Assembly (NCBI GenBank): GCA_900128565.1
Contig: LT635912.1
Span: forward strand, 1-64,000
Origin: Stramenopiles sp. TOSAG23-6
Taxonomy: Eukaryota
DNA length: 64,000 bases
Direction of reading: 5' to 3'
Positions 17,836 through 64,000 of the stretch are shown in pieces (the stretch's first letter is position 1; each line of letters starts with the position of its first letter). The notes under the pieces were generated by a model. That model had not been told where the DNA came from. It searched no databases and saw nothing but the letters and a program-made list of their open reading frames with translations. Position numbers and translations under genes: made by a program.

Positions 17836-18129
17836 CTTTAAATAGTTGTCTTTGACCTTGTTCAAGTTAGTACCAGAGAAAACTACTGGGATTTGTGTCA
17901 GGCAGTTCTTCGGTCGTTTTTGTTACGAAATTTCGTACCAAATCAAATTGGTAGCAATTTGAATTGTTTACCAGTACGCTTACGCGTGCGCTGAATGGAT
18001 TTGGTGGGACAAACCTGTTCTGAACTTCTGATGCATGCAATCAATCGCAGGTATTTTTTTTTACGAGAATATTATATATATACGATGATGATAAATTGTA
18101 GTTTATTTTTGAAATTACGCCAAATAGAT

Positions 18130-25100: not shown

Positions 25101-25652
25101 AGATTTATTAATTTGTCTTGGAATTTTAGAAAATAGACTTACATTAGTAAATCCAGGTCTCCTTTCTGTGTGCAATGCGATAGATGGTGCTATACAGGCA
25201 AGAGTATGTTCAAGCGCCATATTAATGAATATGTCTGATTCATTCTTACCGGCCATGCATGCTGTATGGACATCCAGAAGAGCAATTGATGTTGTACATA
25301 CATCGGATACAGGTTTTTCATGTACTTCGGAGAGAGAATCCAATACAAGTAGAAACATTCTCGGTGTACAGATTCATATAAAATGGCCACAAAATTATTT
25401 TGAATGCTTACTCCAAGGGAAAGAAGTTTTTACTTATGCATGTAGTATTGGAACTCTGGATCGTCGAGTGCAATTACCTGTAATACGCGAACTAGATGAT
25501 GAAATACTTCAACGTTTGAAAGAAGATCCTGTATGTTTTATTTTTTTTCAATTTCGAATTTTTTTTTCGTACGAAATTGTGTACCTAACAATTTTTTTTA
25601 GATTTTTTTTTAGAAATATTTTTCCAAAATACATGGGTGGGCAGCAGAATAA
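22192..25652 (+). CDS. Large secreted protein with coiled coils and possible non-catalytic thioredoxin-like domains; exons 22192-25530 and 25635-25652
   Basis: Signal peptide; two related segments (SYKFRGRMKFVE, AKYVNRMTFAD); family intron near the 3' end gives KEDP|GWAAE*. Confidence 0.65.
25531..25634 (+). other. Non-canonical GT-AT intron, 104 nt, phase 0
   Basis: CCT|GTATGT...TTTCGTACGAAATTGTGTACCTAAC...AATATTTTTCCAAAATACAT|GGG; boundary set by family homology. Confidence 0.78.
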
Positions 25653-43519: not shown

Positions 43520-46500
43520 ATGGGACGCATTGATTATATTGTATGTGAAAATTTTAAATCCTATGCTGGAATACAGAAAATCGGTCCTTTTAAGGGTTTC
43601 ACCGCCATCATTGGTCCGAATGGCTCGGGTAAGTCAAATCTAATGGATAGTGTTTCGTTTGTCCTGGGAGTATCATCTCAAAAGTTACGTGGTAAAAAGT
43701 TGCGTGATTTGGTATTTCAAAATGAAACTCAAAAACGTGGTCTGAGTGAAAAGAATGGTGCTTATGTTGCACTAACTTACATTGTGTCAGAGGGTGAGTT
43801 ATCAGGAATGGAAGAAGGTGACCGTTTGGAGTTCAAACGTTCTATTTCTCCTGCAGGCAGTAGCAGCTATCATCTTAATGGCCGTAAAGTTGGTTGGAAT
43901 AGATATAATGCGACACTAGAAAATTTAGGATTATTGGTTAAAGCGAGGAATTTCTTAGTTTTCCAAGGGGACGTGGAGTCTGTAGCTATGCGTTCTCCAA
44001 AGGATTTGACCTCACTCTTCGAAAAAATCAGTGGTTCTGAAGAATTCCGTGAAGAATACGATACATTAAGTAAAAGTAAGTCCGCAATAGATAATGAGAC
44101 AGTATTTGCATGTGGTAGGAAGAAAGCTCTTGCGGATGAAAAGAAGAGAGCTAAAGCTGAAAAAGAGGAAGCCTCTCGGTGGAAGTTACAAACTGAAAAG
44201 TTATCCGATACTAAACGTGAGTTTTATTTATATCAACTTTTCCATATTGAAGCTGAGCGCAAAAGCGAACAGAGTACAGTTGATGATATTAAAGAAAAGA
44301 AAAAAGAAATTGAAGCAAAATTAGCTGCGGAGAATGCACAGATCAAATCTGCTAGGGCTGAACGCGCCAAGGCTTCACGAATATTCCAGCAATCTCAAAA
44401 AAAACTTGATAAAGCTCGACAAGCTGTCGATAAAGATCAACCTGCTGTGATTAAGCTACGTACTGAGATAAAACATAGCACAACACGAGCTCAACGTCTT
44501 AAAAATATTGGTATTAAAATTAAAGCTGATCATGATAATCAACTACAAGTGCTAAAAGATATGGAAGTAGATGTCGAAGCTGTACGTTCAATGCAGACCG
44601 AGTTTGAATCTCAAATACACGAAGAAAGTTCACAGCGACCAGAATTACATCTCACAAAAGAACAAGAAGCATTATACTCTGAAACGAAAGAAGCTGCACG
44701 GGCTAAAACGACAAAACTTCGCGTTCGCCTTGAAAAAGTTGAGAGAGATCAACAGCAAGATACTGACAGACTTCAGCGTTTGCAGGGAGAAGATTCGGAA
44801 CAAAGTGATCGTGTTAGATCTCAACGAGAAACTATAGCAACACTAGAAACTCGACGAAAACAAGTTGCGACAGCGATTCAACGAGATGAAGAAAAATGTT
44901 CAGAAGTGACTGAGAATATCAATACAATGAAAAAAAATATTGAGGAAAAGGAAGCGACATTTACAAAAAACTCTGACAATATTAAATCTGTCAGTGAACG
45001 CCTAGGACATGCAAAGGATAGTAAACGGCAAACGTCTAAAGAACAAAAAGATTCGCAATGTTTAGAAAGATTGCAGCGTACATGTATGTTTTATTTTTTT
45101 TTTTAAAACAAAAAATCGATTTTTTTTTCGTACGAAATTTTGTACCTAACAAATTTGAGTTTTTTTTTTAAATATTTTTCCAAAATACATTTAAAGGTGT
45201 CCACGGGCGCCTTGTAGATTTATGTAGACCAACTCAGGAAAAGTATAATGTTGCAATTACTGTAGCCATGGGAAGATTTATGGATGCGATTGTGGTGGAT
45301 ACGGAACAACTAGGTTTCGATTGTATACGATTTATGCGAGAACAGCGTTTGGGTCGAGCGAAATTTTTACCTCTCGACAAATTAAATCCAAAAATGATCA
45401 ATGAACGACTTCGTCAATTAGGTAGTTCTTGTCATTTGGCATTCGATGTCGTTCGATTTGATCCGATTTTTACGTTGGCTATTCAATATGCTTGTAGTAA
45501 TACTGTAGTCTGTGATGATTTAAGTGTTGCACGTCGTTTATGTCACACGGACGGACGAAATTTGAAAGTTGTCACTTTACAAGGTTATATGATTGCAAAA
45601 AATGGAAATATGACTGGAGGATTAACTGCGTCAAATATAGACAGAGCTCGACGTTGGGATGAACGCGAATTTCAGAAAATGAGGAAACAAGTAAAAACCT
45701 TGAAGTCACAACAAGCTGAATTACAACGTGAACTGGGAGGGGGTAGCAAAGTAGCGAGACATCGTGGGCGTATTGGTTCACTCATTGCTGAATTACGTGC
45801 AAGCGAATCCTCTCGTGGAACGTTAGAGAGCAAACTCGAATATGCTAAGAAAGAATTACAATCACAAACAATTCCAAAATTGAAAAAACTTCAAACGCAG
45901 TTACAAGAAGCCGAGAGTATTCTAGGTGAAATGCGACCTAAAAAACAGAAGTTAGAAGCTTCAATTGGAAAACGATCGAAAGTTATTGCTGATTTGAAGA
46001 AAAAAATTGCTTCGACAGAACGTAGTCTTTTTTCACAACTATCTAGTGATATTGGAATTGATATTATGGGAGCAACAGGAAGTGTTGCCGATTACGATGA
46101 ACAAAGGCATGAACGCCAAAGAGAAGTTGCTAAGGGGCGAGCTTCTTTAAAAGACCAATTAACGAAATTGATTGCTCAGCAGGATTACATGGCTAAACGA
46201 GCAGATAAAATTTTGTCTAAAGTAAAGCGATCTGAAAAGCATTACGCTACTGAAGAAAAACAATTAAAGAAATCAAAGAATGCTCTTGAAAAAGCCGAAG
46301 CAAATCTTGCTTTATTGAAAGACACAGTAGAAGGTTTGAAAGAAGAATGTAAGGTATTAGCACAAAAAAAAGAAGAAAAAGAAACGGAAGTCAAATTGTT
46401 TACGAAGGAAAAAACGGCAATATCTAAAACTCGAGATGGTTTTGTAAAAGAAATTGGTTCGCATGAAGCTCGAGTGGAACGTATGCGGGCTCGATTACAC

Positions 46501-47840
46501 ACCGTTCTTCAGAAAGCTCAAATGGAACAGGTTGAACTCCCATTACTTGATTGTGATGATTCAGATGAGGATGATGTAGATGATCCGATGGACACTGACA
46601 GATCTTCTATGTCGCGTTCGCAATCTCAGTCAGATTTTGGAATTTCTGGTTCTGAAAGTCAAGATGGAAGTAGTGTAACATCAGGCTCGGCCACTATGAG
46701 GTTTAGTCAACGAATGAGTACTGGCGTACGACGTAATCGTAATATTGCCGCACAGATTGATTTTTCAGCATTAAAACGAAATCGTGATGTAGAATTATCG
46801 CAGAGTGAACACACGGTAATTCATAAACAATACGTAGCTACCATTAGAGAAATTGTTGGTGATTTAGAGACAATAAAGCCAAATATGCGAGCTTCAGCGG
46901 CATATGACAAAGCTGATGAAGATCTCACGAAACAAACTGCGGAATATTCTACAGTCAGAGAGACACAAAGAACGACTGATAAAAAGTTTGAAGAAATACG
47001 AAAATTTCGCCACGCAGCATTCATGGAAGCATTTGCGCATATATCTACGGTAATTCCTGCTGTGTATAAAGAACTTACAAAAAGTCCTCTCCATCCAACA
47101 GGTGGTTCTGCTTACTTGACATTGCAGAACCAAGAAACGCCATATCTTGGAGGTGTTAAATATTGTGTTCTTCCTCCAGGAAAGAGATTTCGTGATATGG
47201 AACAGTTATCTGGTGGTGAAAAAACAATTGCAGCTTTAGCTTTATTATTCAGTATACATAGTTTCAAACCTGCTCCATTTTATGTAATGGATGAAATCGA
47301 TGCAGCGCTTGACAATGTGAATGTTCAAAAAGTTGCTAACTTTATTCGCCTACGTAGTAAAGGGAGTCCGTTTTCATTTCAATTTCGTATCTAAGTTTTT
47401 GTTTTCGTAGATAATGTTGTACCTAACATTTTTTTTTTGAAATATTTTCTCAAAATACATGTATTCATTTAGGAAATGCGAAGCTTCGTGGAAGTATTAA
47501 TACAGACAGTGACGCTAATATTTTAAGTATGACTCAAAGTCAAAATGAAAATGAAAATGACTTGTTGGTATCAAAACCTGAAAAAGGTCTTCACTTTGAA
47601 GGTACACAGTTTCTTGTGATTTCACTAAAAGATTTGTTTTACAGTAAGGCAGATTCATTAGTTGGTGTATGCCGCGATGAGAAAAAATGCTGTTCGGTAA
47701 CAATGACGTTAGATCTCACTAAATACGAGCGCAGTAAGGAAAATGATGACACGCAAAATAACCAACAAAATATTGTCAATGAGGCTATCCAGGATGATGA
47801 TGGCGAATATTCTCTCATAAACGCCAGTCATAGATATTAA
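43520..47840 (+). CDS. SMC1: Cohesin subunit SMC1; exons 43520-45083, 45191-47365, 47461-47840
   Basis: [27 protein letters not shown], hinge [34 protein letters not shown]. Confidence 0.97.
45084..45190 (+). other. Non-canonical GT-AT intron, 107 nt, phase 1
   Basis: CAT|GTATGT...TTTCGTACGAAATTTTGTACCTAAC...CCAAAATACAT|TT; restores [12 protein letters not shown]. Confidence 0.9.
47366..47460 (+). other. Non-canonical GT-AT intron, 95 nt, phase 1, donor GTCCGT
   Basis: GGA|GTCCGT...GTACCTAAC...CTCAAAATACAT|GT; links in frame to the terminal QFLVISLK exon. Confidence 0.85.
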
Positions 47841-48070
47841 AGGTGATTTCTATCAGCTTTGATGTTTACTTGATGTGTTTTTTTTGATGTTGTTTTTGGT
47901 ATAAAAAACATGACTCAAAATGAATATGACCAAATGTTAGAGCAACACCTATGTATTATTTTATACTAATTATGCGTTTTTTTGCATTTTTTTACTCAAT
48001 AAAACGTATTATATACAGTATCTATGACTAAGACACTTTATTGATTTTTTTATAATTACACAATCTTCCT

Positions 48071-49480
48071 TTATTCATAATATATTTTACGTCGTTTCAC
48101 TGATCGTTTTACTTCTCCACCTGTTGTTGGAAGTAGTGGACTTTTTGCAAGTTCTTCAGCACTACGTGGATTCTTTTCGTTTTTTTCGTTAGGCACAAAA
48201 TTTGGTACGGATTCTAGTTCATCAAAATCATCATGAAAATCATCCATACCTGCCATTTCCGCATCAAGAAGAGCATCCATAGCTTCATCCATTGCATCTT
48301 CACCAGACTCTGTGCCTCTGTGAACATTATTACAATCAGAATCTTCAACGGCCTCTTGAGTAGCTGCAACGAATTCCTTAACAACCTTTTTTACATAACT
48401 TTTATGAAAAATTTTACTATTAGGATTATTTGGAATTTGTGATGTACGCGAATCAGAAAATAAACGATAGAAAAATTGTAAATGCTTGACTGTAAACTGA
48501 AATCGGTCATAATAAGCTACCATTTGTCCAGATGCTAATGCTAGTCTATGTCCGATGAAATTTGGAAAAATTAAATTTTCACTATTTTTAAATGCACCAA
48601 CATCAAAATAAGGATGTTCATAATTCATGTCAGAGGCTGCAAACGAAAAAGCGATTCTAGGTGTGTGATATCCTTTTCTCCCAGCGCTACCCCAATGAAT
48701 AATTCTATGTGAAAACATCACTGCAGATCCAGCAGTTGCAGGAAGTGCCTTGATGTTTTGATATGCTTCTTTATTGTGTAGAGCTCGTTGGAGTGGATCT
48801 GGATCGTCATCATTTGGAAGATCACCTTCCTCTGGCCCATAGCCTGGGTCAAACTGACGAGGGATGACATAAAGACATGAATTATCAGGACACGCATCTG
48901 TCAATGGAATCCAACATGTTGAATATTTAGGTGAACCATTTTTTCGAAATGAATTTGGTAAGTCTTCTGGCTGCCTATCTCTATGAGGTGAAAATCCTTT
49001 ATGACCTTTATTAGGGTCAATATACCAAGCAAGAAAATCGAAATTGTTCTGATTACCACCAGAAGTGAACGCAATCAACTCAGAAACTTCACGTGCCATC
49101 GCCCAGCTCTCGTCATATAATAGTATAAACGTTGCTGGCCAACCATGTTGCATAAGAGTTACAATTGACCTAGCTAATGCAGCAGTATTTCCTACCCAGG
49201 GCAACCTACTAGTTTGGAAATAACCATCTTGATTCATTCTATTTTTGAGGTTCTGCCAGTCATTATTAGAGTTTTTGAATACTTTTACTTTTTGCTGCCA
49301 AAGTGTATCACAAACATGTAATTCAGGACATAACTTTTGCCAATAGGACACGTCGTTTACAACGTCAATTGGGTCGATGACACTAGTACTCCCCGAAAAG
49401 TCACAAGAAACGTGCGAAAGAAGAGACGCAAGTGATTTTACTGAGAGTTTATCTACATTATCAGGATTATCAAGTGCCAT
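48071..49480 (-). CDS. PhyH-family 2OG-Fe(II) dioxygenase
   Basis: PHRD, CWIPLTDACPDNSCLYVIP, IIHWG. Confidence 0.85.
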   Translation of the reverse strand: MALDNPDNVDKLSVKSLASLLSHVSCDFSGSTSVIDPIDVVNDVSYWQKLCPELHVCDTLWQQKVKVFKNSNNDWQNLKNRMNQDGYFQTSRLPWVGNTAALARSIVTLMQHGWPATFILLYDESWAMAREVSELIAFTSGGNQNNFDFLAWYIDPNKGHKGFSPHRDRQPEDLPNSFRKNGSPKYSTCWIPLTDACPDNSCLYVIPRQFDPGYGPEEGDLPNDDDPDPLQRALHNKEAYQNIKALPATAGSAVMFSHRIIHWGSAGRKGYHTPRIAFSFAASDMNYEHPYFDVGAFKNSENLIFPNFIGHRLALASGQMVAYYDRFQFTVKHLQFFYRLFSDSRTSQIPNNPNSKIFHKSYVKKVVKEFVAATQEAVEDSDCNNVHRGTESGEDAMDEAMDALLDAEMAGMDDFHDDFDELESVPNFVPNEKNEKNPRSAEELAKSPLLPTTGGEVKRSVKRRKIYYE

Positions 49481-50279
49481 GTAAACACTTTACAGTTTAT
49501 AATAAGAGTAGCGTTTTTCTACCAGTACTTGAAGTGGCTTATGAATACGAAGAAAAGAGAAAGTGTAGTGTGCTGTGGCATCATCAGTTGTTCTTTCTGT
49601 TGTGTCACACTGACTTGAGGCTGCAGTCGCACGAAATCGTGATTTTCAAAAAACGTCTTTTTTTTGACGTTTTTTCAAAAAACGTCATTTTTTCGACGTC
49701 ATTTTTTCGACTTTCCGATCCGCAAGAGTACGCAGAAACAACGTTTTGAACAGTTAAAAAAGAGTGTTTTCAAAGTTGGTTGCTGTTGTCCCATTTGTCA
49801 GGTCATTACCCTCAAGATGAATCAACAATGTTTGGCAATGATGTGTATGACAAGTTGGGCTCAAAATAATTTTGAAGATAGTATGAAAACTCAGTGTATA
49901 TTGCGTGAACTTGAGTCTGAGCATCAGCTGCTTAATTAATGTACAACATTTTCATTGTAGAAAAATTTTAAAGGAAAAAAAAAAATTGAACCCTAACACA
50001 AAAACACAAAACATTTTATTCACTAATGAGCTCTCTTTGGTCTACTCAAGCATGGGATAATAACCTTTGTCCGTCAAACAATGAAGGAGCACCTTCTCAA
50101 CGTGAATGTACTACTCTACGTATAAAACGTTATTTTTCGCGCGTTTGGAAAAAAAATGCGTTTTCGTGTGCTGTGAGCCTGACTTTGGAATTCGTTCTGG
50201 ATTTTTGCCAAATTTGCACGATATAGATCAGAATTGATCAGCTGTCGATTCTTTCATCATCAGCAGAGTCTTCTTCAGA

Positions 50280-50756
50280 ATGTTCAGTTATGTTGGAAAT
50301 TCAGTAATGACATTCATTATGTCACACCCACTTATGATATGTGCCTGTTTGTTTATTCTTTACCGTATTCGGCAAGCGTCACAGCCAATTCCGGACTATG
50401 GTGGAAACGTTAGAGTAGTTCATTCTTTGATGGAGTGGAAAGCTATTCAGAAAGAAGCTATTGCAAAAAACGTACCAGTTATCGCTGACTTCTATGCCAA
50501 TTGGTGCCCCCCTTGTAGAATGGCGGCTCCAGTATTTGCTGAATTGAGTCTAGAATATGATAGAGTCATATTCTGCAAGATTAATGTTGATAACTGTAGA
50601 GATGTATGTTCAGCTGTCAACTTCTCTGGAGGAATTCCTCAATTCCACTTGTATAAAGACGGTTCTAAGCAGGATGAAGTAGTTGGTTTTAGTAAGGGTA
50701 GATTAGAAGGTCTTGTATCCAAGTCAGGAGCATTACAAGTTAAAAAATCCTCATGA
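50280..50756 (+). CDS. Thioredoxin with N-terminal membrane anchor, WCPPC active site
   Basis: DFYANWCPPCR, KINVD, GIPQF. Confidence 0.92.
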   Translation: MFSYVGNSVMTFIMSHPLMICACLFILYRIRQASQPIPDYGGNVRVVHSLMEWKAIQKEAIAKNVPVIADFYANWCPPCRMAAPVFAELSLEYDRVIFCKINVDNCRDVCSAVNFSGGIPQFHLYKDGSKQDEVVGFSKGRLEGLVSKSGALQVKKSS

Positions 50757-50786
50757 TGATAAAATAATATAATTGTTTTCTTTTTA

Positions 50787-53700
50787 TTATCTTTGTTTGT
50801 CTTTTCTTACATTAACTAGCAAAAAATATGCCACTATTCTGAAAAGTAAACCAAATATAATAAGGCAGATTATATCAAAAGCAAAATCAGGCTTCCGATG
50901 CTCCTCAGGGGCATTTTTGTCATATTTACTCATGAGACAACTAGCATCATCGGAATTACCACAGTTGTCCCAGTCCATAAAACAACCATCTTTCTCTCGA
51001 AGTCTTTCAGTATTCTGATTCTGATTATTAAAACTGTCAATACATTTCTGGAGTACTGTAGTTGGAAAATCAGATTCGTGGCCAATACCCATTTCTATCC
51101 AAGTCAGTGCTCTTGCGGACCACCTACTATATGCCCAATATGCGAACTTGCCAGCCTTTGGGACATATCCACCAAAGAGATTAATCAATACTGCAAATAT
51201 GACAGAAGTTAACGTAGCAAGTGACAAATCAGTTTGAAATGCACAGCCAACTGCGTAACCCATTCCAGATACAGTCCATACAACACAGAGAGCCCATTGT
51301 AGATATGAGCTTGTTGGGCCTGCAACATCTACAATGAGTGCTACAGGTGCGATAAAACAAACAGCCCCGATACACTGGAGGGGGAAATCAACCAAAACTA
51401 CTGCCAGAAAATACGCAAGTTTATTTACACCAGCACTTGCTTCACGCCAAAACACAATCTTCTTTTGACCACAGAATGATACACAAGAGACAGATGCTGC
51501 ACAGACACCAAGAGCCATTGTCATGAAAAAACCAAATGGGCCCAATTCATTTCGAAGAGGTTCAAAGCATATTTGTGTAAAAATATTCTTTTTGTACAAT
51601 TTGTTAGGTATGGAATTTCGTACGAAAAAAGAAATCGAAATGGAAGAAAAATAGAAACATACATTTCCATTCAGCACCCGATGGGCAATTTTTCGAATAT
51701 TCATTGGCACCTCCTCTTGGCTCAATTAACAGTGGTTCAGATCCAAAGATGATAGCAATAACAAAACCATCAAATACAAATGCAAGTAAGTCAAATCCCA
51801 ATTGGTATGTGCGAAAAAAACGAATTCTAATATTTTGTACAATAAAGGCTCTCAATTGAACAAAAAAAACAGGAGCTTCTTTCGACGTATCTGACATTGT
51901 TTTGTTGTTTTCTGGTGTAAGTTTTGTATCTGACTTCGTTTCCGTTTTCATTTCCTGAAATGCTTTTGATAATTGGTTAGATGCAAGACGAGATGCATTA
52001 ATCTGGGATTTCACATTTTTTGTAATAGTGCTACTTTTGCTTTGACCACCATCATTTTCAATTCTACCGCATAAAACATCCAACACAAAATCTGCGAAAT
52101 TGTCATCAGAATCTTTTTGGTACCCCATTTTTGCAAAGTGAGCTTCCGCGAGGCTAGCTTGACCTAAATAAACAGTTTTACCACCATATCCAAGTAACAT
52201 CAATGTATCGATTTGATTGTATATTTCAAGCCGAGGTTGATGTAGTACACTCACGACAGTAACTCCACCATTTGCAATGGTTTTCAATGCTTTCATTACC
52301 CCAACTGCTGTACTCGAATCTAAGCCACTCGTTGGTTCATCTAATAAAATAGCTAAAGGATCCATTACCAACTCTAATGCAATATTGACTCTTTTTTTCT
52401 GTCCGCCACTAATTCCTCTTCTGTACTCATCTCCAATGATGACGCCTGCAACGTCTTGAATGCCCAGAACATTCAGTACAGCTTCGACTCTATCTTTAAT
52501 ACTTTTCTCTGATACTTGTCTTGCACTTAAACGCGTTTTGGCAGAATGTGTTATGGCTTCTCGAACTGTGAGTTCTGGATGCATGACATCAGATTGAGGC
52601 ACAAAACCAATACGTGACTTAAAATCTGTTAAACATCCTTCTTTTTCATTGATAAATACTGTACCATCAGTATGCTCCAATTTCCCCGCAATGATATTAA
52701 GAAAAGTAGATTTCCCCGCTCCACTAGCACCAAGAATACACATTAAATTACCAGGTTTAATTTCGCCATTCGTCCCAGATAAGCGAAACTTCTGCGATTG
52801 TTTTTTTTTGATACAACAACCACAATATTTATATTGAGTTGGAATCTTCAATGCGAGGGAATGAAATTTAATAGATATCGAATCCTTTTTCGTTGTAGAG
52901 ATTTTTTCGACTTTACTTTCTTGAGTTTTATTTTCTTGAGTTCCGAGATTTTGCATTTCAACTTGTGGTTGTTGGGAAACTTTACTTTGTCCTTTTCGAA
53001 AAAAACATACCAAAAAAAATTGTCCGCCCACTAAAACAATTACAATAATAAGCAAAAATGGTTCTGAATTTGATTTTGCCCCTTCGGCGCAAATGGATAA
53101 TTTCCCACATTTTTTTGGAGTTTTTGATCCCCTTGGACAATAATAACCTTTAGGACAAATTGTTTTAGTACCTGCATATTTGTCACAATAGTACCCAGAC
53201 GGACATGCCACAGGATATTGATTTTCCTCGCAGTGTAAGCCTGGAGCACATGCAGTCAATGTGACGATACATTGAGATAAATCTCCAGCTTCTTGATAGA
53301 TGTGTCCTGGTTTATGAGACACCCATTTATATGGATCCTTACAAGTATTTTGGGTGGTTGCAGAGGCGTTTCCTTCACAACTACCTAAAAAACTTCGAAA
53401 TTCATGACTGTTCATTGTGGCTTTTGCTTTTGTGTTTTTTTTTTCTAAATCACAGACAGATAATAATTGCTCGCGAAAGAAAAGTATTAGAAATGTGTCC
53501 TTTTCGTGGGCAGAGTTAAAATCAGCACCATCTATTGGCCGTGTGCACACAGCTTTTGGCTTCTGACTCATGGCATGATACAGTTCAAGAAGTAGCGTTC
53601 GTGAAGCAGTGACATCTTTACACATACTGCACTCGTTAGAAAAGTTACTTGAATTATCAGAAACACTCGTATCACCCATTTTTTCAAAGAATATTCTTCC

Positions 53701-53907
53701 AAAACATGTATTTCGTTGATTTTGGTTCCCCATTACCCCAATAATATTTTGAACTGCTTCTTTCGTTGGACTAGAGGAAATGTTCAATTTGTTTGTTAGC
53801 CAAACTTGAACCTCTGTGAGACAGCTCGACGTAATAGAAGAATTAAGTTGACTCGCATTCACATTCAATATCACTAAACACAGAAGTAGCATTAAAATAT
53901 ATTCCAT
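50787..53907 (-). CDS. ABCG half-transporter with Cys-rich extracellular N-terminus; exons 53907-51663 and 51568-50787
   Basis: GASGAGKST, ISGGQKKR, LLDEPTSGLD, LHQPR, FWREASAG; CPxGYYC repeats. Confidence 0.92.
51569..51662 (-). other. Non-canonical GT-AT intron, 94 nt, phase 1, acceptor TAT
   Basis: AAT|GTATGT...TTTCGTACGAAATTCCATACCTAAC...ACACAAATAT|GC; join EWK-CFEP. Confidence 0.85.
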
Positions 53908-54234
53908 GGCGAAAGTAATCCAAATTTACTCGCAATATAAATTTTCTTGGGGAGTTTAGGTTCTTTTTTGTCGAAGAGAGAAACTTTCAAATTTCAGCAA
54001 GTGAAAATTTCAAAATTCGCTGAAAATCAAATTTGAAATTCAAATTCAAATTCAAATCGAAATATAATTGACAAGGTACAAAAAAAACATATAAATGCAA
54101 GTCCCTTACCGCAGAATTTATACATACGTAGATATTAGATATATTTGAGATACTGCTTTATTTTTTGGTAATTAAAAAAAAACGAATTCTATCTATTCTG
54201 GAATCTTCTATCTATTCTGGAATCTGGATGAAAA

Positions 54235-56109
54235 ATGGTTCATTTCTTGACTACATTGATATATCTTTTGTATTATCACTGCATACATGCAAATGATGAC
54301 CAATGTAATGAAGCTATAAAAAAGCAAAAGATAAACGTGAATAGTTCAGAGTGGAAACTGTCACCAAATCGTGTTGTTATGGACAGTAACTTTAAATGGG
54401 GTCGAGTTGTAGTTCCCATCTGGACGTCAGTATTTTTAGGCACTAATGATTCTCTCCCACACTTGGATAACACTTTACAAATTTTATCCTCATTTGAGAG
54501 TGATGAACTTGCGCTTGTTACAGTCGTAGGTGGTGGCGCTTATCTCCGTATTCTTGAACATATGGAATTTAGTTCTATTCATTTCTTTGACGCAAACGTT
54601 AACGAGTTAAGTAAACTTCGACTTGTTCATGACGATATTATCAAATATGACTATGATACATGGATAGCAAATGGTGGAATGCAGTCTGTAGCTAATAAAA
54701 TTTCCTCACTGCGGGAAAAATTTTACCTGCCAGCCCCACTTCTAACAGCAGGTGTAACCCTGCATCCTGCAACTGACTTTGAGTGGCCGATTCCTGGTCA
54801 GAGTAGTTATTATGATCCATTAGGTCGACGAAATCCACTTTGGTCAATTTTCCCTCCTTTATCTTACCCAGAGTATGCATGGAAACCAACTCGAAAGGGT
54901 TATGAGAGAGTACGCAGACAATTGAAATATCGTGTGGCAAATGAATTTTATTTATCAGTTCCTTGTGGCATCATTCCACCTAATATTCTTTCAATAGTTT
55001 ATGTTGATGGAATCAAAATTCCAAAATCAACAATACGTGCGGTTTCACGTTCGGGTGATGCTATTGGTTTATGGTCGATGGTTGAAGACCAAAAATTACT
55101 CGGTAGGGGAAATAATTCAGATTGGTCAGATTCCCATTTCTTTTGGGAGCTCGCAGTTCGTTGGAGGATTGAAAGTAGCACTACAGTAATAAATAATACT
55201 AGAATCGGTATGGATAATATTGTAAATAATGTAATGCATATTTGGGCAATTGAAGATATAAATATGATGGGAACAATCTACGATTGGATGTTTACAAGTA
55301 GCATGGAAGCATCGTCATTTGCTTCGTCTACTGTGACGACTTCAACACCCAATAAAAAGGAGACAGACAAATCTTTCAATGAAATCATTGTTTTCCATAT
55401 TCTACTTGGTAAAGCAACTACTAAAACGAATTGTTCAAAACGCGAAGAATTATTTATGAATGCGTTGATTCGAGCTGTAAAAGAACCACATGTAAGAAAT
55501 GTTCTAGTTACTGAGCATAACACCTCTTCAAAACAATTTGATATTTTAACTAATCCATGTGCATTAAATGCAGCTAATATCAGAAAACTTATCAACAAAA
55601 CATTGTCATTAACACCAGACAACATCAAAACGAACATAATAGCTACTCGTTTTCTACCTGGTGGTGGTACTCATGATAGAAATGTATTATTTGATATTGC
55701 AGTAAATGAAGGAATTCCATCAAAAAATGGTAATAAAAAAGAAACTTTCCTTGAAGATAATAATAAATCTATGAGACCAGCAACTATTCAACTTCAGATT
55801 GATGAAAACACGAAAAAAAGGCCTATTATTTTTCCATATGATGGGTCTGTAAAAGTATTACAATCTCTCGCGGCTGCTGCGTGCATGGATATTCCTCTTA
55901 CTGATAAATCATGTATGTTTTATTTTTTTTAATTTCGATTTTTTTTTCGTACGCAATTTTGTACCTAACAAAAATATTGAATGTAAAATATTTTTCAAAA
56001 TACATGCATAGACCAAATTATGAATGAAATGAAAAGAATTATAAAAGAAGATAAAAAATCTTCTGCGAGGGCGATTCGCCCTGAAAAAGAGAGCAAGGTG
56101 ATTCAATAA
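54235..56109 (+). CDS. Hypothetical secreted protein; exons 54235-55912 and 56006-56109
   Basis: Signal peptide, long ORF; join DKS-CIDQIM. Confidence 0.7.
55913..56005 (+). other. Non-canonical GT-AT intron, 93 nt, phase 1
   Basis: CAT|GTATGT...GTACCTAAC...AATATTTTTCAAAATACAT|GC. Confidence 0.85.
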
Positions 56110-56183
56110 GGATAATTACAAAAGTATTACTTTAATAATGAATAAGTAAAAAGTTTGTTAGTTTTGGTTTGTCTTCCTTTTTT

Positions 56184-56909
56184 TTAGTTTATCGTCTTTT
56201 TTTTCTTAGAAGGTAGTTTACTTGCAATTGTTGGCTGAACTCCCTCATCCAATCTTTTACGCTTCTTCTTTGTAGTTTGTTTTTTCATACTTGTCTTTTC
56301 ATCATCTTCAATATCGACGTGTTTTGATAAATCTTTTTCTGTCTGAGCATTATCTTCAAGAGATAGATTATTATTATCTTCAAGAGATAGATTATTCAAT
56401 ATCCATTTAAGTAACTCATCACCTTCAATCATACCAAATCTTTCTATTAGAGTATAATTCTTATCATTTATTGGACGAAATGTTTCATACCCGTGGCGAA
56501 GTTCTGCCATACGATTGATGGTTCTTTGATCCCATCCAGGACGAATATTTCGCGAAACTGCTTCAAGAGCTTTTTTGTTTGATTTAGACATGAGTGAAAT
56601 GACAAGAATTTTATAGCCTTTCTTCTCAGCCAAAGCTGCCAAAACTCGAAAGTTCCTGAGTTTCATGTTTAAATTATCTAATATTACCAAAGGCTTCTTA
56701 TCCATAAGGGCTAATGTGCACTTGTTTGCACACCAAGGTATTGCACAATCACAGTGAGTGCTAAGTTGCCATCTTCGGCCTTTATTTTGTGGTTGTAGCC
56801 ACCATCGATCGTTGCTACACACAACAGCACCATGGTCTTTTTCAAGTTGATTGGAAAGATAACTTTTACCCATTCCTGTTGTGCCTCTCAAAATAATAAA
56901 ATTCTGCAT
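56184..56909 (-). CDS. P-loop kinase (AAA_33 / N4BP2-like) with basic NLS-like tail
   Basis: ILRGTTGMGKS, VCSND, VILDNLN. Confidence 0.8.
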   Translation of the reverse strand: MQNFIILRGTTGMGKSYLSNQLEKDHGAVVCSNDRWWLQPQNKGRRWQLSTHCDCAIPWCANKCTLALMDKKPLVILDNLNMKLRNFRVLAALAEKKGYKILVISLMSKSNKKALEAVSRNIRPGWDQRTINRMAELRHGYETFRPINDKNYTLIERFGMIEGDELLKWILNNLSLEDNNNLSLEDNAQTEKDLSKHVDIEDDEKTSMKKQTTKKKRKRLDEGVQPTIASKLPSKKKKTIN

Positions 56910-57192
56910 GTTGTTGGGTATATTACAATTTGAAACAGTTTAATTATCAAATCAAACTGAAGATATATCTTATTTTCTTCAAAGATACTGATTTGAGATT
57001 GATTAGGCCTAATTCCGAGTGACACGATCGCCGAAGATCGACTGTTTCTGTTTTTTTTCGTTTTTCGTGTCGGTGTTTGTTTGCCGTTTGTTGGTTCGGG
57101 AAAATTTGAATTCAAATTTCAGCAAAAATTTCAACAACAAAACAACACAACACACAATAAAGAGTTTTGAATTTATCGTTTTAAAACTTACG

Positions 57193-59675
57193 ATGAGATT
57201 GATGAGACTTTTTATATATCATTTTGCATTCGTTCACACTGTTGCAGCAGAAGCATCTTTTGTGTTAAAAAGTTATGAATGCGTCGCTGGCTTCGATTGT
57301 ATGTATCAAAACAGTTGTGCTAATGATGAAGGAGTTTCTTGTCCCATTGGCCGGTTCTGTGGCAGACCCAGTTCTTTCCCCAATGGACTTTTTCAATGTG
57401 ATGGTGACCATAATCAAAGTTGTCCAGGTAGTGAATTCCCAGATGATAGGTGGAGAACTTCAAAGTGTGCCACGGGTGCATACTGCCCGACGACAGTAAC
57501 AAATCAAAAATGTGAAGCTGGATACTTTTGCCCAAGAGGGTCTGTCAAAAGAGTCAAGTGTTCAATAGGTTCAATATGTGGCGAAGCATCACACTTTCCA
57601 ATTGGATTTTTGCTGTTTGGTTTCGCAATACTTTTGTTTATTTTTTATATTTTATGCCGTCGCTTTTGTCTCACGACAAAAATTGGTCATACGATTTCAA
57701 ATGATGGTTGCGAAAACAAAAAAGAACTTCCAGTTTCTAAGAAACTGAAAATGCCATTTCCTCTTCAATTCGAATTTGATAATATATGCTGGAACTTTCG
57801 AGATAAGCCTATTCTTCGTGGTGTATCGGGTTCTGTCAAAGCAGGTGAAATGATTGCAATTATGGGTCCATCAGGAGCAGGTAAAAGTACACTAGTAAAT
57901 TGTCTAATGTCACGGTATACCCCCAGTACCGGAACAGTAACAATAAATGGATACAAAGATATTGAATTCTCTAGTATATGTGGAATAACTGGTTATGTCC
58001 CACAAGATGATATAATGTTGGCTAAATTAACAGTCAGGGAGAATTTAATGCATTCAGCAAATACTCGAATAAATTCTCAAGTAAAAGCAAATTACTCTTC
58101 AAAGGCTCGTGTTGATTCTGTACTCACCAGTCTAGGTCTAGAACATGTACAACATTGTATAGTTGGAGATACCCGTAAGCGTGGACTAAGCGGTGGTGAA
58201 AAAAAACGTGTATCGATTGGTCTTGAACTAGTGGCTAGTCCGTCTGCAATTTTTCTTGATGAGCCTACGACAGGGTTAGACTCATCCGCGGCTGAAGTTG
58301 TGATTAATCAATTAAAACTCTTTGCTAATGAAGGACACGCGGTTATAGTAATTTTACACCAACCACGTGCTAGTATATTCAAACAATTCGATAATATCCT
58401 TTGCTTAACATCTAGAGGCGAAACATTTTACTTTGGAAGTCCTCTTAAAGTTCGTGACTTTTTAAACCAAATACAAAATCCATGTCCATCGGGGAAAAAT
58501 CCAGCAGATCATTTAATTGACATTGCAACGAAAAAGGGTAAAGTATCAATGACATCTACCCCAACAAGTATTTCGGATAAATCTAAAACAATCTCAGAGA
58601 ATACAGTAAAATTTGAAGATCCAAGATTAAACATCAAAGGAAAATTAGCGAGTTGGGGAGCCCAGTTTTTATTCTACTGGAAACGTTCCTGTGTACAACA
58701 GCTACGAGATTCCATGGCACTGTATCTTTATTGTGGTCTTGTTTTCCTCATGGTTGCTTCTCTCTCAACTGGTTTTTCACCTTTTATCCAAGAAAATCTG
58801 GAGAGTGTTTACAAACCACCCCTCGGCAAATCATTGAGAGATTATTGTCCACCACACAATAAAGCATGTTCTGGCAGCATTAACGACGATGGATTAATAC
58901 AAATGATGTTTTTCTACTGTATGTCAATTGGATCAATTGGAATGCTTGCTGCATCTCGAACATTTTACAGAAGTGAAATGATAGTAATGAAAAGAGAATC
59001 AAATATTGGTCTATCCTCATCTGCTTGCATCATTGCAAAAGTTTTTGCTGATTTAAATGTAATTATATTACTATCATTGCTCGCATCAGGACTATGGCTT
59101 GCCATGGGTTATCCGGGTGGACCTGTTCGTTGGTTTGTTCTTACTTTTTCATTGTTGTTTACTTGCTACGGATGGGGATATTTTGTTTCACAAATTGTAT
59201 CCGATGATATGATTATGACAGTATGTATGGTGTACGTTTTCATACTAAATTTTGTACCTAAGATTCTTTTCATCCTAGTGTTTCTCTTTTGCTCACATTT
59301 TCTAAAAATAATTTTACTTTTCGAATGATTCCAGTTGTCATATTCTAATTTTACATTTTTTCTGACGTATAATTTAATTACAGCACTGCTCTTGGCTTAT
59401 CTGCTTTTAATGGTGTGAATCCAAAACTTGTGGATGTTCCTTGGCCGTGGAGAACCATCTGGGGCATGGGATATAGTAGGTGGATTTCCGAAGCCATATT
59501 TTCCACCTTTACAATGCATGATAGAAACAGTGGCTTACCTGTGCAATTTGCTGCATCGAGATTTGGCTATGATGTCTCCGACAATCAATTTATTCTTGAT
59601 ATTGTAGTTGTAGTGATACAAGGAACCTTATTGAGAATATTTACAGGATTTTTGATTGTTAAAAAGAATACATAA
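57193..59675 (+). CDS. ABCG half-transporter with Cys-rich N-terminus; exons 57193-59231 and 59384-59675
   Basis: GPSGAGKST, LSGGEKKR, FLDEPTTGLD, LHQPR; join VCMV-TALG. Confidence 0.92.
59232..59383 (+). other. Canonical GT-AG intron, 152 nt, with a degenerate family-derived 5' half
   Basis: GGT|GTACGTTTTCATACTAAATTTTGTACCTAAG...TTCTGAC...TTACAG|C; restores frame. Confidence 0.85.
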
Positions 59676-59795
59676 AAGATTTAGAAATAAAAACCATCAG
59701 AGATATTTTTTAAATGGCTTAATATTCAGAGCACTTCTTCAGAATGCAGGATTTTATTTGAGTAAAGTTGAACCGTTTATAAATGACCTAATCGT

Positions 59796-61023
59796 TCACG
59801 CATTTGCTGCTATTTTATCTGCTTCACCTACTATTATCGTTGATTCTGTCGATATTGCAAAATCTTCGGCCATATCCAAACTAGAACTTCTTTCTTCTTC
59901 TTTTGCTGCTTGTACTGTTGTTTCTGCTTCTTTCAATTTCAAATTTGCAACTGAAAAAACAAATGTTTCCTCTTCTTTCTTCCTCTGACAACGAAATTTC
60001 CAACGGACCTGATTTACATTTGTTTTATCTGGATCATTAGATGTCACTTCGTATCCTTCAAATGTTGGTATACCTCCTAACCATTTTTGCTTTTTTGTTT
60101 TTGGAAATCCACTTTGAATTACGCTATTTCGTGCAATTTCAGATATATCAGTTGTACTAAGGCACCATATCTGTCGAGCTATGGAATATTCTTCTAGTAG
60201 AGGTGCATCTGATAAATGAAATATCATAGGATCATCCGTGGATAAACTAACATTTAACCCTCGCTTGAAGAATTTATAAAAGGGTTGATCTTCGTATCTC
60301 ATGAATAGAACATTGTTTGATACTGGTGAAACTGCGAGCCCAATATTATCTAGATAGTAAAGATATTGCATAACTATATCATTTGCTAATCCAATTCCGT
60401 GATTAATTCCATTAGCCAATAAATAAGTAGTACAAAGATGATGTTTGGAACCACTTTCACCTGCATGTGGACGCAATGAAAAAGTATTCATTCCTTTAGA
60501 ACGCCTTAATGAATTCAATCGGCTAATATTTGCATAAAGGTAATATAATTGATAAGAATATGGAGGATTTTGTTCCGATGTCCAATCTTTTGGAGTTGTA
60601 ACCTTTCCATCAATTGTTGCAAGAGGGAGATCAAGTAAGCTTTCATCATCGACAGAGTCAAATCCTGAAACATCTTTTAGAAATTCTGAAAGCTCCGGAT
60701 ATTTTTTTGGTTTCTCAGTTGCATCAAAAAGAGGTTGAAATATATTATATATAACTTCTTGATATGATGTTACTTTTTTCAATTTGTGAAATATGCGGTA
60801 AATGTATTGTGAAAAAATATTTTTACTCGAAATATTTTGTTAGGTACAAATTTGGTATAGAAAAAAATTAAATTTAAATTTTGAAAACATATATTCTTGG
60901 AATTTGAATAAGCCATCGATTGTGTGGCTGCTGGACTAGCTTATTATTGAGAGCCCATTTTGCAAGTTTATCCCATGCATCAATGTTATCACCATAAATG
61001 GATAAACGATACTCTGCCCACGT
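59796..61023 (-). CDS. AMP deaminase, C-terminal part only; exons about 61023-60893 and 60801-59796
   Basis: AEYRLSIYG, WLIQIPR, FDSVDDES, LRPHAGESG, SLSTDDP; N-terminal half not present upstream. Confidence 0.88.
60802..60892 (-). other. AT-AT intron of the same family, 91 nt, phase 2
   Basis: AAT|ATATGTTTT...GTACCTAAC...CACAATACAT|T; restores QIPRIYRIF (an equivalent AT-AC register is possible here). Confidence 0.85.
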
Positions 61024-63491
61024 CCATTGATGCAGACATCCGGCGATATTGCTGCAATTGTTTTTCAAATTGATTACTTTGTGTGTGCGTATCATTCAAA
61101 GAGTGTGACATATTTATATCAAAATTATTTTTCATATATTGCGTCATTTCTTGTATTCCGCCAAGAGAACCACTACGCCCACGTCTTACAGGAGGCGATT
61201 TGACAAATTTTGACCCAGATGAAGATGCACGAGCTCGTTCAGGCCAAAGTGAGTGCAAATCAGGGTCTGACGGAGTTCTGCTCATGTTAAAACTATTTCT
61301 TTGCTGACGAACATTTCTACTATTATCTGGTGTTTGCCTCAAATAACCTCTTATTTGTGTAGGTGTTGTTGGTGAACCCAAAAAAGTTGAATTAGGATGT
61401 CGTGGGGGTGTTGACCCCAGAGGGGTTGGCAAATTTGATCCTAGTATCATTATAGGCGATTTTCTTGAGATATTAGTGTTAGGGGACGCATGTCCTATTT
61501 GTTGAAATTGCGGCGGCGTATTTATGGAACTGTTCAAACTTGTTGGCATGCTATTATCTGATGATGTGCTTAGTCTATGTACCCTGTCTGCAGTCATAGG
61601 AATACTATTATCTGATGACAAGCTTAGTCTATGCCTTTCAACGACTTGTCCGACAGTTAACGGTGCATTTGAATGTAATCTTTCTAATGAACTTGCAACA
61701 CTGTATTGAATAGGACTTGATGATGATGCAACCTGCATATTAGGATTCGATCTATTGCTTCCAGGTGATAAAGGGTGACAATTCCGAGGTATAGATAAAG
61801 GTAATGCAACAGACATTGGGGAACCAGCATCATTTTTTACATTGGTATATTGATTATGAGAACCAATACGTGATTGCTGTTGGGGTGACCAATTCTGTGC
61901 ACTTTGAGATGGATAGGTTCTTTGATGTTGAATCATATGAGGCATCATTGGCTGTCGTGGGGAGTAATGTGGACCTTCACTCATTGGAGAAGATATTGAA
62001 GGATGTTCCATCGACCGATCATTCTTATACATGACTTTCATTTGTCCCATATTTTGACGTCGTGCAGAGTGTTCCATACCAGTAGATGAAGACAATGCAC
62101 CTTGAGGTCCAGAATATTGTATATACTGCTGACGAGAATTCGAATAAATATTATTTGGATTGGGTTGAAATTCAGGTTCAACATATTTTTGTGGTTCAAT
62201 AGCAATATTATTCTGTTGGCCTCTTTGCTGTTGATAGTATCTATTCTGTACCATCATAGCAAATCCTGGTCCTAAATGGTCTGGAAGTGAATGTGGTCGG
62301 AAATGATCATGTATTTCGGAAAAATATTATTTTTAGTAAAAATTTGTTAGGTACAAAATTTGGTACAAAAAACAAATTCGAAATTCAATTTTGAAAACGT
62401 ACATTTGGTTGACTTGCTCGGTATAACTCTGGAGGAGATCTATAAGGAGAGTCTAATCGCAAAGGGTAGCGATACATGAGATTATGATTCCCACTATGTA
62501 TTACACTCTTAGTCTGTTGTTGTATATCTTGGGTATAATGAGTATCATGATAGTGTCTTGCTTGGTTTCGTACTCTTGGGATATTTGAACTCTGTTTTTC
62601 TACCTCTTGATTAGGGTTAGGGTTACGTTTCTTTCTCACGTCTTGGCCATCAGAAGCATCTTTCCCTTCCGGTCGATCAGCATAATTATTAATAATACAA
62701 TCAGTGACATTTGGTTGTCCAAGAATTGAACCTGAGAGATCAAATCCACAGTCTTTTGCATACATTACGCTAGCTTTTAATTCACCGAACGGTGTTCCAA
62801 TGGGAGAAAAAAAATATTTAGAAGTTTCCCGATTTGAGTTAAAGCTCAATGGCAGAGAACCATCATTGCTCACTGCATTTGCGCCAAATTCATAATTTAT
62901 ATGTGTTGTTGACAAATTGGACCGTTTCGTATTTCGCATCAGACCATATGCAGGTAGAACTCTAACAAAAGCAAATACCGATCGAAGAAATATTGCAATT
63001 CGCTTATAAACCTGTCTTAGTTGAGAGGTCATATCTCCATACTTTTTTAAACTTAAGTCTGCACCACCAGATGGATCAAAGTGTAAACTCCAACGCTCAA
63101 GTAATATACGTGACGAAGTTGTGTTATCATTGTGATTCTTGGCTTCTACAGAGGGTATTCCGACACCAGAAAAATGACCAGCACAAGCTCCACCCCCGCC
63201 CATCCAAAATATGTCACACTCTTTGAATGGTAAATATGGATCATGCTTCCATGGTTCTAGCTCTTTGCGCACAAAATCTATGTTTTCTATGTGCAAATTA
63301 AATGGCGGCCTCGTCTTCTTCTTTTGAGTCCTTTGAGGAGACTGAAAACGAACACGAGATTGTAACACAATCTCCGATATTTTGAACAAAGATTCAAGTA
63401 CAATACGTTCACACTTTCCTCGCTCATTCTTTTCCAAAGCATTACCTTGTGCAGATTGCCGGCGTTTAATTGCACTAGAAGGTGCAGACAT
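60989..63491 (-). CDS. ATG13: Autophagy protein 13 (HORMA domain plus Ser/Pro-rich disordered region); exons 63491-62403 and 62308-60989; C-terminus possibly truncated
   Basis: IVLQSR, FNL, LLERW, YKRIAIFLRSVFAFVRVLPAY, TPFGEL. Confidence 0.85.
62309..62402 (-). other. Non-canonical GT-AT intron, 94 nt, phase 0
   Basis: AAT|GTACGT...GTACCTAAC...AATATTTTTCCGAAATACAT|GAT; joins the two ATG13 ORFs in frame. Confidence 0.88.
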
Positions 63492-63744
63492 TATGAAAGT
63501 CCCACGTGGGTGGGAATGATTCCCGCTGTCCCCAAGAAATGCTTTTATAATATTTTATCAGTGAAATACTAATGTTGTCCGATTTCGAGATTGATTGTGT
63601 TTTGTCGAGAAGAACTTTCTTTTCACCAAAATGAAACTGTTTTTTCCTGTTCAACTGACGCAACATTTTTTCATAATTAATTAAACGTATATTTGTGACA
63701 GTGATACATTTTACAACAATAGTTGAAATTAAAAGCGACGATAG

Positions 63745-64000
63745 ATGGATTTGGCAGAAGAATATGAACAATGTGGTCTTGGTGCATATCAGCCATATTA
63801 CGACAAACTTTTACTTGAACACCCTAAAACTGTTGGCTCATCTGTGTCGTCGAAAGAACGTCGAGGTAAAACATATACTGGCTCTAAATTTGTGTATGGT
63901 GAAATACGATTTGACTCTTTTTCTCTGGCAATACATAAAGTTCGAATATATGGTGGATTGAAAACCCCCGGAGGAATTTTCTACGACCTTGGGTCGGGTA
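63745..64000 (+). CDS. DOT1-like class I SAM methyltransferase, 5' part, runs off the window (not in the ORF track)
   Basis: Manual translation MDLAEEYEQ...FVYGEI...GIFYDLGSG. Confidence 0.8.
   Translation, partial: MDLAEEYEQCGLGAYQPYYDKLLLEHPKTVGSSVSSKERRGKTYTGSKFVYGEIRFDSFSLAIHKVRIYGGLKTPGGIFYDLGSG

Follow-up and report, generated by a model that had tools for sequence, protein, structure and literature searches.

The AG that closes an intron is among the most constant signals of eukaryotic genes. Nearly all the introns found in a 64-kilobase (kb) stretch of the genome of Stramenopiles sp. TOSAG23-6 (GenBank assembly GCA_900128565.1, contig LT635912.1, positions 1 to 64,000; hereafter the window) end in AT, skipping AGs. 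What, then, is the intron at 59232..59383 on the + strand (152 nucleotides (nt), phase 2), which lies in a gene for an ABCG-type half-transporter and has a GT at 59232-33 and an AG at 59382-83? A first-pass annotation, made from the letters of the window, had called it the only GT-AG intron there and a converted member of the AT-ending family. Our analysis, whose scope is this 64 kb of one genome, points instead to a hybrid, in which the 5′ module of the family appears to be set on an unrelated, canonical 3′ module. The letters that the annotation had quoted are in place: the 31 letters stand exactly at 59232-59262, the TTCTGAC motif at 59360-59366 and the CAG at 59381-59383.

The boundaries of the intron were derived by conceptual splicing against homologous proteins. 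On the + strand, an open reading frame (ORF) runs from an ATG at 57193 to 59231, and a second one from 59373 to a stop codon at 59673-59675. Exon 1 (57193..59231), with the Pfam domains ABC_tran, ABC2_membrane_7 and ABC2_membrane, ends with the GT of a split GTC valine codon, and exon 2 (59384..59675; 96 codons and a stop) encodes the conserved C-terminal membrane part. The exons were joined by script and the product was aligned with six homologues (P0001, P0002, P0003, P0006, P0011 and P0013). The cut GT59232..AG59383 was gapless at the junction in all six, and the valine of the split codon was invariant. The best database protein, P0001 (source label eukprot:GSMAST32.ASY1.ANO1.1953.1), is 98% identical over exon 1 and reads ...MTVCMV before and TALGLSAFNG... 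after this same junction. Over exon 2, 50 of 96 residues are identical to P0002 and 43 of 96 to P0003. The frame of exon 2 opens only past an in-frame stop at 59370-59372, and the CAG acceptor (59381..59383), which holds the single AG beyond this stop, is the sole AG or AT there that restores the conserved frame. The AT acceptors past the stop, ending at 59373 and 59378, are both out of frame; the AT at 59356 would give V-F-S-D-V-stop (5 codons) with loss of the conserved 96-residue C-terminus; the AG at 59334-35 is in frame, but a stop is reached after 10 codons. Because AT acceptors are out of frame or lead to a premature stop, splicing to an internal AT, the outcome that the first-pass annotation had singled out as speaking against it, is incompatible with the conserved protein frame. 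The conserved protein thus indicates that 59232-59383 is a real intron excised exactly from GT to AG, and upholds the earlier view that canonical AG splicing works in this cell. Donor-like motifs inside exon 1 (GTATGT and GTATGG, 59221..59230, + strand) encode a conserved V-C-M and are apparently unused; donor 59221 with acceptor 59383 would take out 163 nt and shift the frame.

No other GT-AG intron was found in the window by inspection of ORF junctions and a listing of strong donors, although these scans were not exhaustive; to that extent the intron remains the only one of its class. A generic scan that joined ORFs over GT..AG or GT..AT was too permissive: away from the family sites it gave 387 and 743 candidates, most of which linked neighbouring genes, and the strong-donor listing and reading of the sequence were relied on in its place. 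A 39-nt GT..AG segment of exon 1 (57404-57442, + strand) encodes 13 residues that are missing from P0001. As a second GT-AG intron this segment was rejected: its 13 residues align to P0002 and P0003, and the difference looks like a gene-model artefact.

The intron was also sought in contigs of four seawater RNA libraries from three studies, placed on 44001-64000. An X7 contig covers 59384-59518 after 17 loose letters: the first 14 look like adapter, and the last three are GGT, with which exon 1 closes, whereas the intron closes with CAG. An X1 contig, reaching at least from 59174 to 59408, holds the whole intron unspliced and differs by a G>A at 59291, a position 117 letters inside the nearer end of the contig. 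Since the X1 contig carries the intron with this one difference, the intron is not an assembly artefact and exists in an independent sample.

To what family could its 5′ end belong? A 13-letter core, TTTTGTACCTAAC, occurs 24 times in the window with at most 2 mismatches, against 2.85 occurrences expected, and 15 full copies of an intron family built around it were curated. They are 91-122 nt long and lie on both strands in unrelated genes (GPR180-like, SMC1, GTP cyclohydrolase II, an ABC transporter, AMP-deaminase-like, ATG13, cobW and others), at 219-340, 7720-7813, 15954-16046, 16414-16511, 37982-38078, 38273-38366, 51569-51662, 60802-60892 and 62309-62402 on the − strand and at 3108-3198, 25531-25634, 33937-34041, 45084-45190, 47366-47460 and 55913-56005 on the + strand. 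A profile made from the 15 copies finds them at E 1e-8 to 1e-17 (nhmmer), together with one copy cut by the window start. The order of parts is a donor GTAYGTTTT, a spacer (TTTCGA module and T-run), TTTCGTACGAAATTTTGTACCTAAC, an A/T-rich linker and a 3′ motif ATATTTTTC(A/C)..AATACAT; a conserved palindrome, TTTCGTACGAAA, is included, and the 3′ half ends in ATATTTTTCACAATACAT. The donors are GTATGT and GTACGT, with single copies of GTCCGT, GTTTGT and ATATGT. The spacer between donor and core measures about 25-40 nt in all 15 members, the branch-like A of the CTAAC in the core lies 33-50 nt (median 38) before the 3′ end, and the tails consist of 42% A, 43% T and 10% C. Folding of five members was not significant against shuffles (z -0.6 to -1.4). 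On the exon side, the upstream exon closes with the same bases as the intron (AT, CAT, ACAT or TACAT; 0-5 nt, mean 2.1), with a repeat of at least 2 nt at 11 of 15 family sites as against 9.6% of random positions (P 6e-9). Either a preferred target or a duplication that varies in length may lie behind this exon-side repeat; its unequal lengths are at odds with a duplication of fixed size.

Four further loci resemble the family in part, the first two of which are picked up by the same profile. A long variant at 16578-16750 (−), 173 nt in length, starts with the donor GTACGT; a stretch of about 45 nt is tandemly duplicated within it, its core (ATACCTGTAAC) is degenerate, and it ends like the family, in ATATTTTCTCAAACTACAT (ACAT). 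A doubtful degenerate copy at 18430-18529 (−), at the end of a calreticulin-like ORF, starts with ATACGTTTTCATG (ATACGT, with A for G at +1) and may lie unspliced in an untranslated region. At 48184-48211 (−), a core CCGTACCAAATTTTGTGCCTAAC (nhmmer E 6.8e-4) stands in frame in the ORF 48074-49489, in the acidic C-terminal tail of a PhyH-domain protein, and is translated as ..SVPNFVPNEK..; an exonised remnant is one possible reading, and a frame-shifting GT..AG candidate of 88 nt (48162-48249), of which this core would form part, is another. The intergenic stretch 17914-17973 contains GGTACGAAATTTCGTAAC, which is like the family palindrome (nhmmer E 5e-4), with neither a donor nor a 3′ motif close by.

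Do the family introns really end in AT? Junctions of 5 of the 15 copies were checked by RNA contigs or homology. For 45084-45190, an X7 contig joins 45078 to 45186 and skips 107 nt, and the TACAT repeat leaves room for a shift to GT..AT; in the SMC1 alignment, which has no gap here, 7 of 8 homologues share the F of the split codon. For 51569-51662, an X2 contig skips 94 nt, and a 1-nt shift gives GT..AT on the minus strand. Homology is continuous over the junctions of 60802-60892 (AMP_deaminase profile positions 347, 348 and 349) and of 38273-38366 and 37982-38078 (chain 7ej3_A, GTP cyclohydrolase II, at 222, 223, 224 and 287, 288, 289). For 47366-47460 and 219-340, the SMC_N and cobW Pfam coordinates are too coarse for such a check, and the first of these sites coincides with a variable insertion in the SMC1 alignment. 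The upstream exon ends in AT at 11 of 15 copies, so that a reading as AT..AC would fit those copies too; at 37982-38078 this reading is excluded by the flanks (exon ..GTCT, intron GT...ACAT, exon GTGT..). GT..AT, or AT..AT for the one ATATGT copy, is the sole reading that holds for every one of the 15. In 7 of 15 copies an AG that stands between core and 3′ end is passed over, and among these seven are both of the copies whose AT junctions are supported by RNA contigs. The family is excised as GT..AT.

The 5′ module of the intron under study (59232..59262, + strand) consists of a donor, GTACGTTTTCAT, fused to a core, ACTAAATTTTGTACCTAAG, and nhmmer and blastn-short searches indicate that these 31 nt derive from the family. 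The module has one match with at most 3 mismatches in the window, against 0 expected from 100 shuffles. The family profile aligns its positions 26-57 to 59231-59262 (16.9 bits, E 2.9e-4 over the whole window). By blastn-short, nucleotides 6-30 of the intron agree with member 15954-16046 in 24 of 25 letters (E 1.9e-6) and with four others in 23 of 25, and nucleotides 1-12 equal the donor of member 3108 in 12 of 12. The donor is of the family type GTAYGTTTT, and the core matches TTTTGTACCTAAC in 12 of 13 letters, the final C being replaced by G, so that the CTAAC of the family reads CTAAG at 59258-59262. These results bear out the earlier description of a family donor fused to a family core with a changed branch motif. 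Could the likeness be due to chance, or merely to splicing signals shared throughout the organism? GTAYGTTTT may indeed be its general 5′ consensus, for which a single non-family intron is available for comparison. However, the core match far exceeds a branch consensus, and an exact 12-letter piece of the core is expected only about 0.03 times in the window, as estimated from base composition. Because of the nhmmer and blastn E values (128-kb search space), which contradict the other adverse outcome that the first-pass annotation had named, chance is excluded as an explanation, and shared signals are hardly credible.

The module differs from the family in that the spacer, present in all 15 members, is absent, and the donor sits directly on the core. 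Two TTTTCAT stretches of member 3108-3198, when joined in a printed alignment, would yield nearly the 5′ end observed here, from which we infer that the spacer was lost by deletion between short repeats. With its length of 152 nt and its core 122 nt before the end, the intron is outside both family ranges (91-122 nt and 33-50 nt, respectively).

The remaining 121 nt (59263..59383, + strand) form a unique 3′ module of another kind, with 50% T, 17% C and 26% A, and with 66% pyrimidine overall and 62% in the last 45 nt of the intron. Its best match within the window is 12 nt long (E 0.35, blastn), the family profile run on the 121 nt alone gave negative scores only, and no internal repeat was found in this tail. 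The family 3′ motif ATATTTTTC(A/C)..AATACAT is not matched, and the intron ends in AG. A position weight matrix (PWM) of the family 3′ end scored 3.89 at best, against 13.9-27.5 in 14 of 15 members (one 7.7), with a chance of about 0.10 for such a length. The annotation had thus rightly described this part as unrelated and pyrimidine-rich. CATATTCTAATTTTACAT, ending at 59356, was considered as a remnant of the family 3′ end and rejected, its PWM score being not above chance and a cut there leading to a stop after 5 codons. Contig depth over the tail is 0.2-2.3, against 10 to >5000 in bins with family cores, and the 3′ module is therefore not a high-copy repeat.

Where would the branch point of this intron lie? 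Two candidate sites were detected by a motif scan: TTCTAAT (59343..59349, + strand; A at 59348, 35 nt from the last base of the intron) and TTCTGAC (59360..59366, + strand; A at 59365, 18 nt from it). The first-pass annotation had set a branch distance under 20 nt here against roughly 30-50 nt in the AT class. The family range and the 18 nt of TTCTGAC agree with this; the claim is weakened by TTCTAAT, an alternative candidate whose distance falls inside the family range. A third possibility is that the family core still serves as branch site, with CTAAG at 59258-59262 forming a lariat 122 nt from the acceptor and the tail looped out. The core is the best-kept part of the intron (AAATTTTGTACCTAA, 15 of 15 letters as in the family consensus), which could reflect continued use. 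Nevertheless, the C-to-G change falls on the position just after the branch A, two closer branch-like motifs are present, and no structure seems to shorten the distance: the fold of the intron does not surpass those of shuffles (z +0.34), 119 of 200 of which equal or exceed it. We therefore regard a branch at the old core as very unlikely. An RNA structure that brings the core near the acceptor or pairs the intron ends was rejected for this intron on the same folding result, and was not significant in the five family members. In the minimum-energy fold, the donor GUACGUU (59232-59238) pairs with GACGUAU (59364-59370), which overlaps TTCTGAC 13-19 nt before the acceptor; the whole fold, as said, does not exceed shuffles. 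With moderate confidence, we read the intron as a working major-type (U2-like) GT-AG intron of hybrid origin.

How might the two halves have come together? The account that we favour, at about even confidence, is that of a derived family copy: having landed in intact coding sequence, it would afterwards have been stripped of its 3′ half and have turned to an AG. A GT..AT copy would have entered the ABCG coding sequence as its neighbours entered other genes, at a site that presumably held no intron before. Only the 5′ 31 nt of that copy would remain. In a probable order of events, the donor was joined straight to the core, probably via a deletion between two TTTTCA(T) stretches, CTAAC became CTAAG, and the family 3′ half with its ATATTTTTCACAATACAT end was replaced by 121 nt of unique pyrimidine-rich sequence ending in TTACAG. 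The strong family donor GTACGT would now be paired with a near candidate branch, either TTCTGAC (18 nt) or TTCTAAT (35 nt), with a T-rich tract and with the CAG, and the old core, 122 nt from the acceptor, would probably be idle. This route is preferred because the other introns found in the window are all family-type (15 full copies, 1 edge-cut copy and the long variant 16578-16750), because the proteins of relatives at 45-58% identity (P0002-P0005, P0158 and P0159) are uninterrupted through the intron site, and because the final TTACAG is only two changes away from the family ATACAT. A representative protein search found relatives at no more than 58% identity, all of which pass through the site, and among the 2434 candidates of a word-based search for proteins like the read-through ORF 58600-59325, none matched at E 1e-10.

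The conversion proposed by the first-pass annotation would be a simpler path. In it, a T-to-G substitution at the final base (ACAT to ACAG) made a full family copy into an AG intron at once, with the CTAAC about 38 nt upstream in use, after which its tail drifted and grew by small insertions beyond recognition. A family copy with this one change would be a textbook intron with its branch 33-50 nt from the end; TTACAG resembles ATACAT; and the long variant 16578-16750 shows that growth by internal tandem duplication occurs in the family. However, drift should blur the whole intron, whereas similarity is about 94% up to 59262 and is then sharply lost, with 31 nt well kept and nothing kept in 121 nt, which lack family signal, have no internal repeat and are 2.5 to 4 times as long as a family tail. 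High identity up to 59262 and none after it suggest rearrangement rather than slow decay. A rearranged hybrid thus fits better, and simple conversion appears improbable.

The same abrupt stop after CTAAG can be read in another way. An older canonical GT-AG intron may have stood at the same codon, and a family copy may have been inserted at or next to its 5′ edge. The resulting tandem introns would be removed together, from the family donor to the old acceptor, and the useless middle (family tail, AT acceptor and old donor) would later be deleted, leaving the break at 59262/59263. In make-up the 121 nt, with 66% pyrimidine, a pair of YNYTRAY motifs and a CAG, do resemble the end of a conventional intron, a T-to-G change of the last base would not be required, and the exon-side AT repeat is absent at this intron. 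On the other hand, no other canonical intron was found among the about 18 introns of the window, so that old introns appear rare; the insertion would need an exact strike on the exon-intron boundary; and the proteins of relatives pass through the site, a weak argument, as gene models may be spliced. We consider both steps of this route, the insertion beside an older intron and the later deletion of the middle, a serious but distinctly less probable alternative to a derived family copy.

Several points weigh against the derived-copy account and against the excision on which it depends. The sharp break at 59262 is equally expected from fusion with an older canonical intron. The uninterrupted proteins of the relatives may be spliced gene models, so that intron absence is not proven by them, and the exon-side AT repeat present at 11 of 15 family sites is lacking here. 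As for the cDNA junction check suggested by the first-pass annotation, an X7 contig starts at 59384 after GGT, and the joint 59231>59384 is not among the joints listed (15 of 27). RNA support for the junction thus amounts to three letters in one X7 contig, a 1-in-64 agreement by chance, and the unspliced X1 contig may represent precursor messenger RNA, a retained intron or DNA. Finally, the evidence comes from 64 kb of one genome.

Beyond the window, the seawater contigs tell something of the abundance of the family. In the bins 44668-45334, 47336-48002, 55340-56006 and 62010-62676 the summed depth is about 10 to >5000, and in adjoining exon bins it is about 0-5. Many contigs match a family intron and then diverge exactly at its 3′ end (45190/45191). 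The contig depths fit a very high copy number of the GT..AT family in nature. When metagenome contigs were scanned for an 18-letter pattern of the family, 5 loci came up, of which L001 alone holds a true family copy; a scan of viral contigs gave 0 matches. In L001, the copy (87-170) has CTAAT for CTAAC, and the contig turns, inside the intron tail, into a short-chain dehydrogenase-like, bacterial-looking gene on the other strand; it is probably a chimeric assembly. The exon before this copy looks like part of a family-B DNA polymerase by a translated motif.

The window itself has about 36% G+C and is eukaryotic, with densely packed genes and long exons; no small nuclear RNA, transfer RNA or other RNA genes were found in it. 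An AMP-deaminase-like gene (59799-61095, −) matches only profile positions 305-624 of 630, with no counterpart found for the first 300 or so. Its first coding stretch lies, in a different frame, over the end of the long ORF by which the ATG13-like gene continues (60992-62326, −). Truncation, a frameshift or an assembly error could account for this.

Most of the interest of the intron stems from the AT-ending family that surrounds it. As an internal control, this single GT-AG intron points to a cell that still reads an ordinary acceptor, and to a family donor that can work with it. Because the two classes share a donor, whatever sets AT ends apart from AG ends has to come from the 3′ half or from the proteins recognising it. 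Tentatively, two modes of 3′ splice-site recognition may exist side by side, one in which the family 3′ motif directs splicing to AT while upstream AGs are ignored, and an ancestral one based on a pyrimidine tract and AG. Single introns would cross over between them, 59232-59383 being a natural hybrid, and 5′ and 3′ halves would be interchangeable. A single tolerant spliceosome would fit the observations in the window just as well as two separate modes. In practice, gene finders that allow AG ends only will mis-annotate such genomes.

Which known systems does this situation resemble? U12-type (minor) introns tolerate odd 3′ ends, including rare GT-AT, and their consensus has a donor of the RTATCC or RTATCCTT type and a branch motif TCCTTAAC close to the 3′ end. 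The family shares with them strong conservation of the donor and of a branch-like motif, the lack of a pyrimidine tract and an end other than AG. Unlike in this consensus, its donor is GTAYGT and not RTATCC, its core is TACCTAAC and not TCCTTAAC, and the core lies 33-50 nt from the 3′ end, farther than in U12-type introns. The family is thus not U12-like in donor, branch motif or spacing, and the intron at 59232-59383 differs further in being plain GT-AG.

A literature search found no description of GT-AT introns or of the core motif, nor a paper that reports AT ends with skipped AGs in this kind of organism; the supplements of PMC5778133 and PMC12614181, which were outside that search, might hold gene-structure data. 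In the portion of text available for PMC5778133, ‘intron’ occurs 2 times and ‘splice’ 0 times, and the corresponding count for PMC12614181 is 0. According to the accessible part of PMC9860276, introner elements are known from Micromonas, Aureococcus, dinoflagellates, fungi and others, and those described begin with GT, GC or GA and finish with AG. The family behaves, as far as can be told from sequence, like introner elements, in that short introns of nearly the same sequence recur many times in unrelated genes (15 full copies within the 64 kb), with exon-side repeats and a short inverted likeness of the intron ends (ATGTAT / ATACAT). It ends in AT, whereas introners end in AG in the descriptions available in that source, and a 2025 survey, in the part of it accessible to us, accepts only AG and AC as 3′ ends (PMC12130899). 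The hybrid intron keeps only the 5′ 31 nt of such an element, more than half of it having been lost.

In Amoebophrya, as reported in the sections available of PMC7789003, introner-type direct and inverted repeats also occur in 1% and 15% of canonical introns. On this partial account, canonical and non-canonical introns coexist there as they do here, and family features are likewise found on GT-AG introns, whereas the non-canonical ends are highly variable and hairpin-forming in Amoebophrya and uniformly GT..AT in the family, whose folding is not above shuffles. In Fritillaria borealis, the accessible portion of PMC13326754 describes conserved U2AF paralogues for canonical 3′ ends and divergent ones for non-canonical ends. 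This pairing of paralogues corresponds to the idea of two modes put forward by the first-pass annotation. As in the window, one cell then has to handle a few canonical introns next to a great majority that depart from the AG rule. Fritillaria borealis, however, is an animal in which both intron ends are non-canonical, whereas the family keeps GT and a strong CTAAC motif. With the hybrid intron, the choice of an AT end becomes a comparison that can be tested within one genome, a choice in which, going by that same portion of the Fritillaria report, duplicated U2AF plays the corresponding role.

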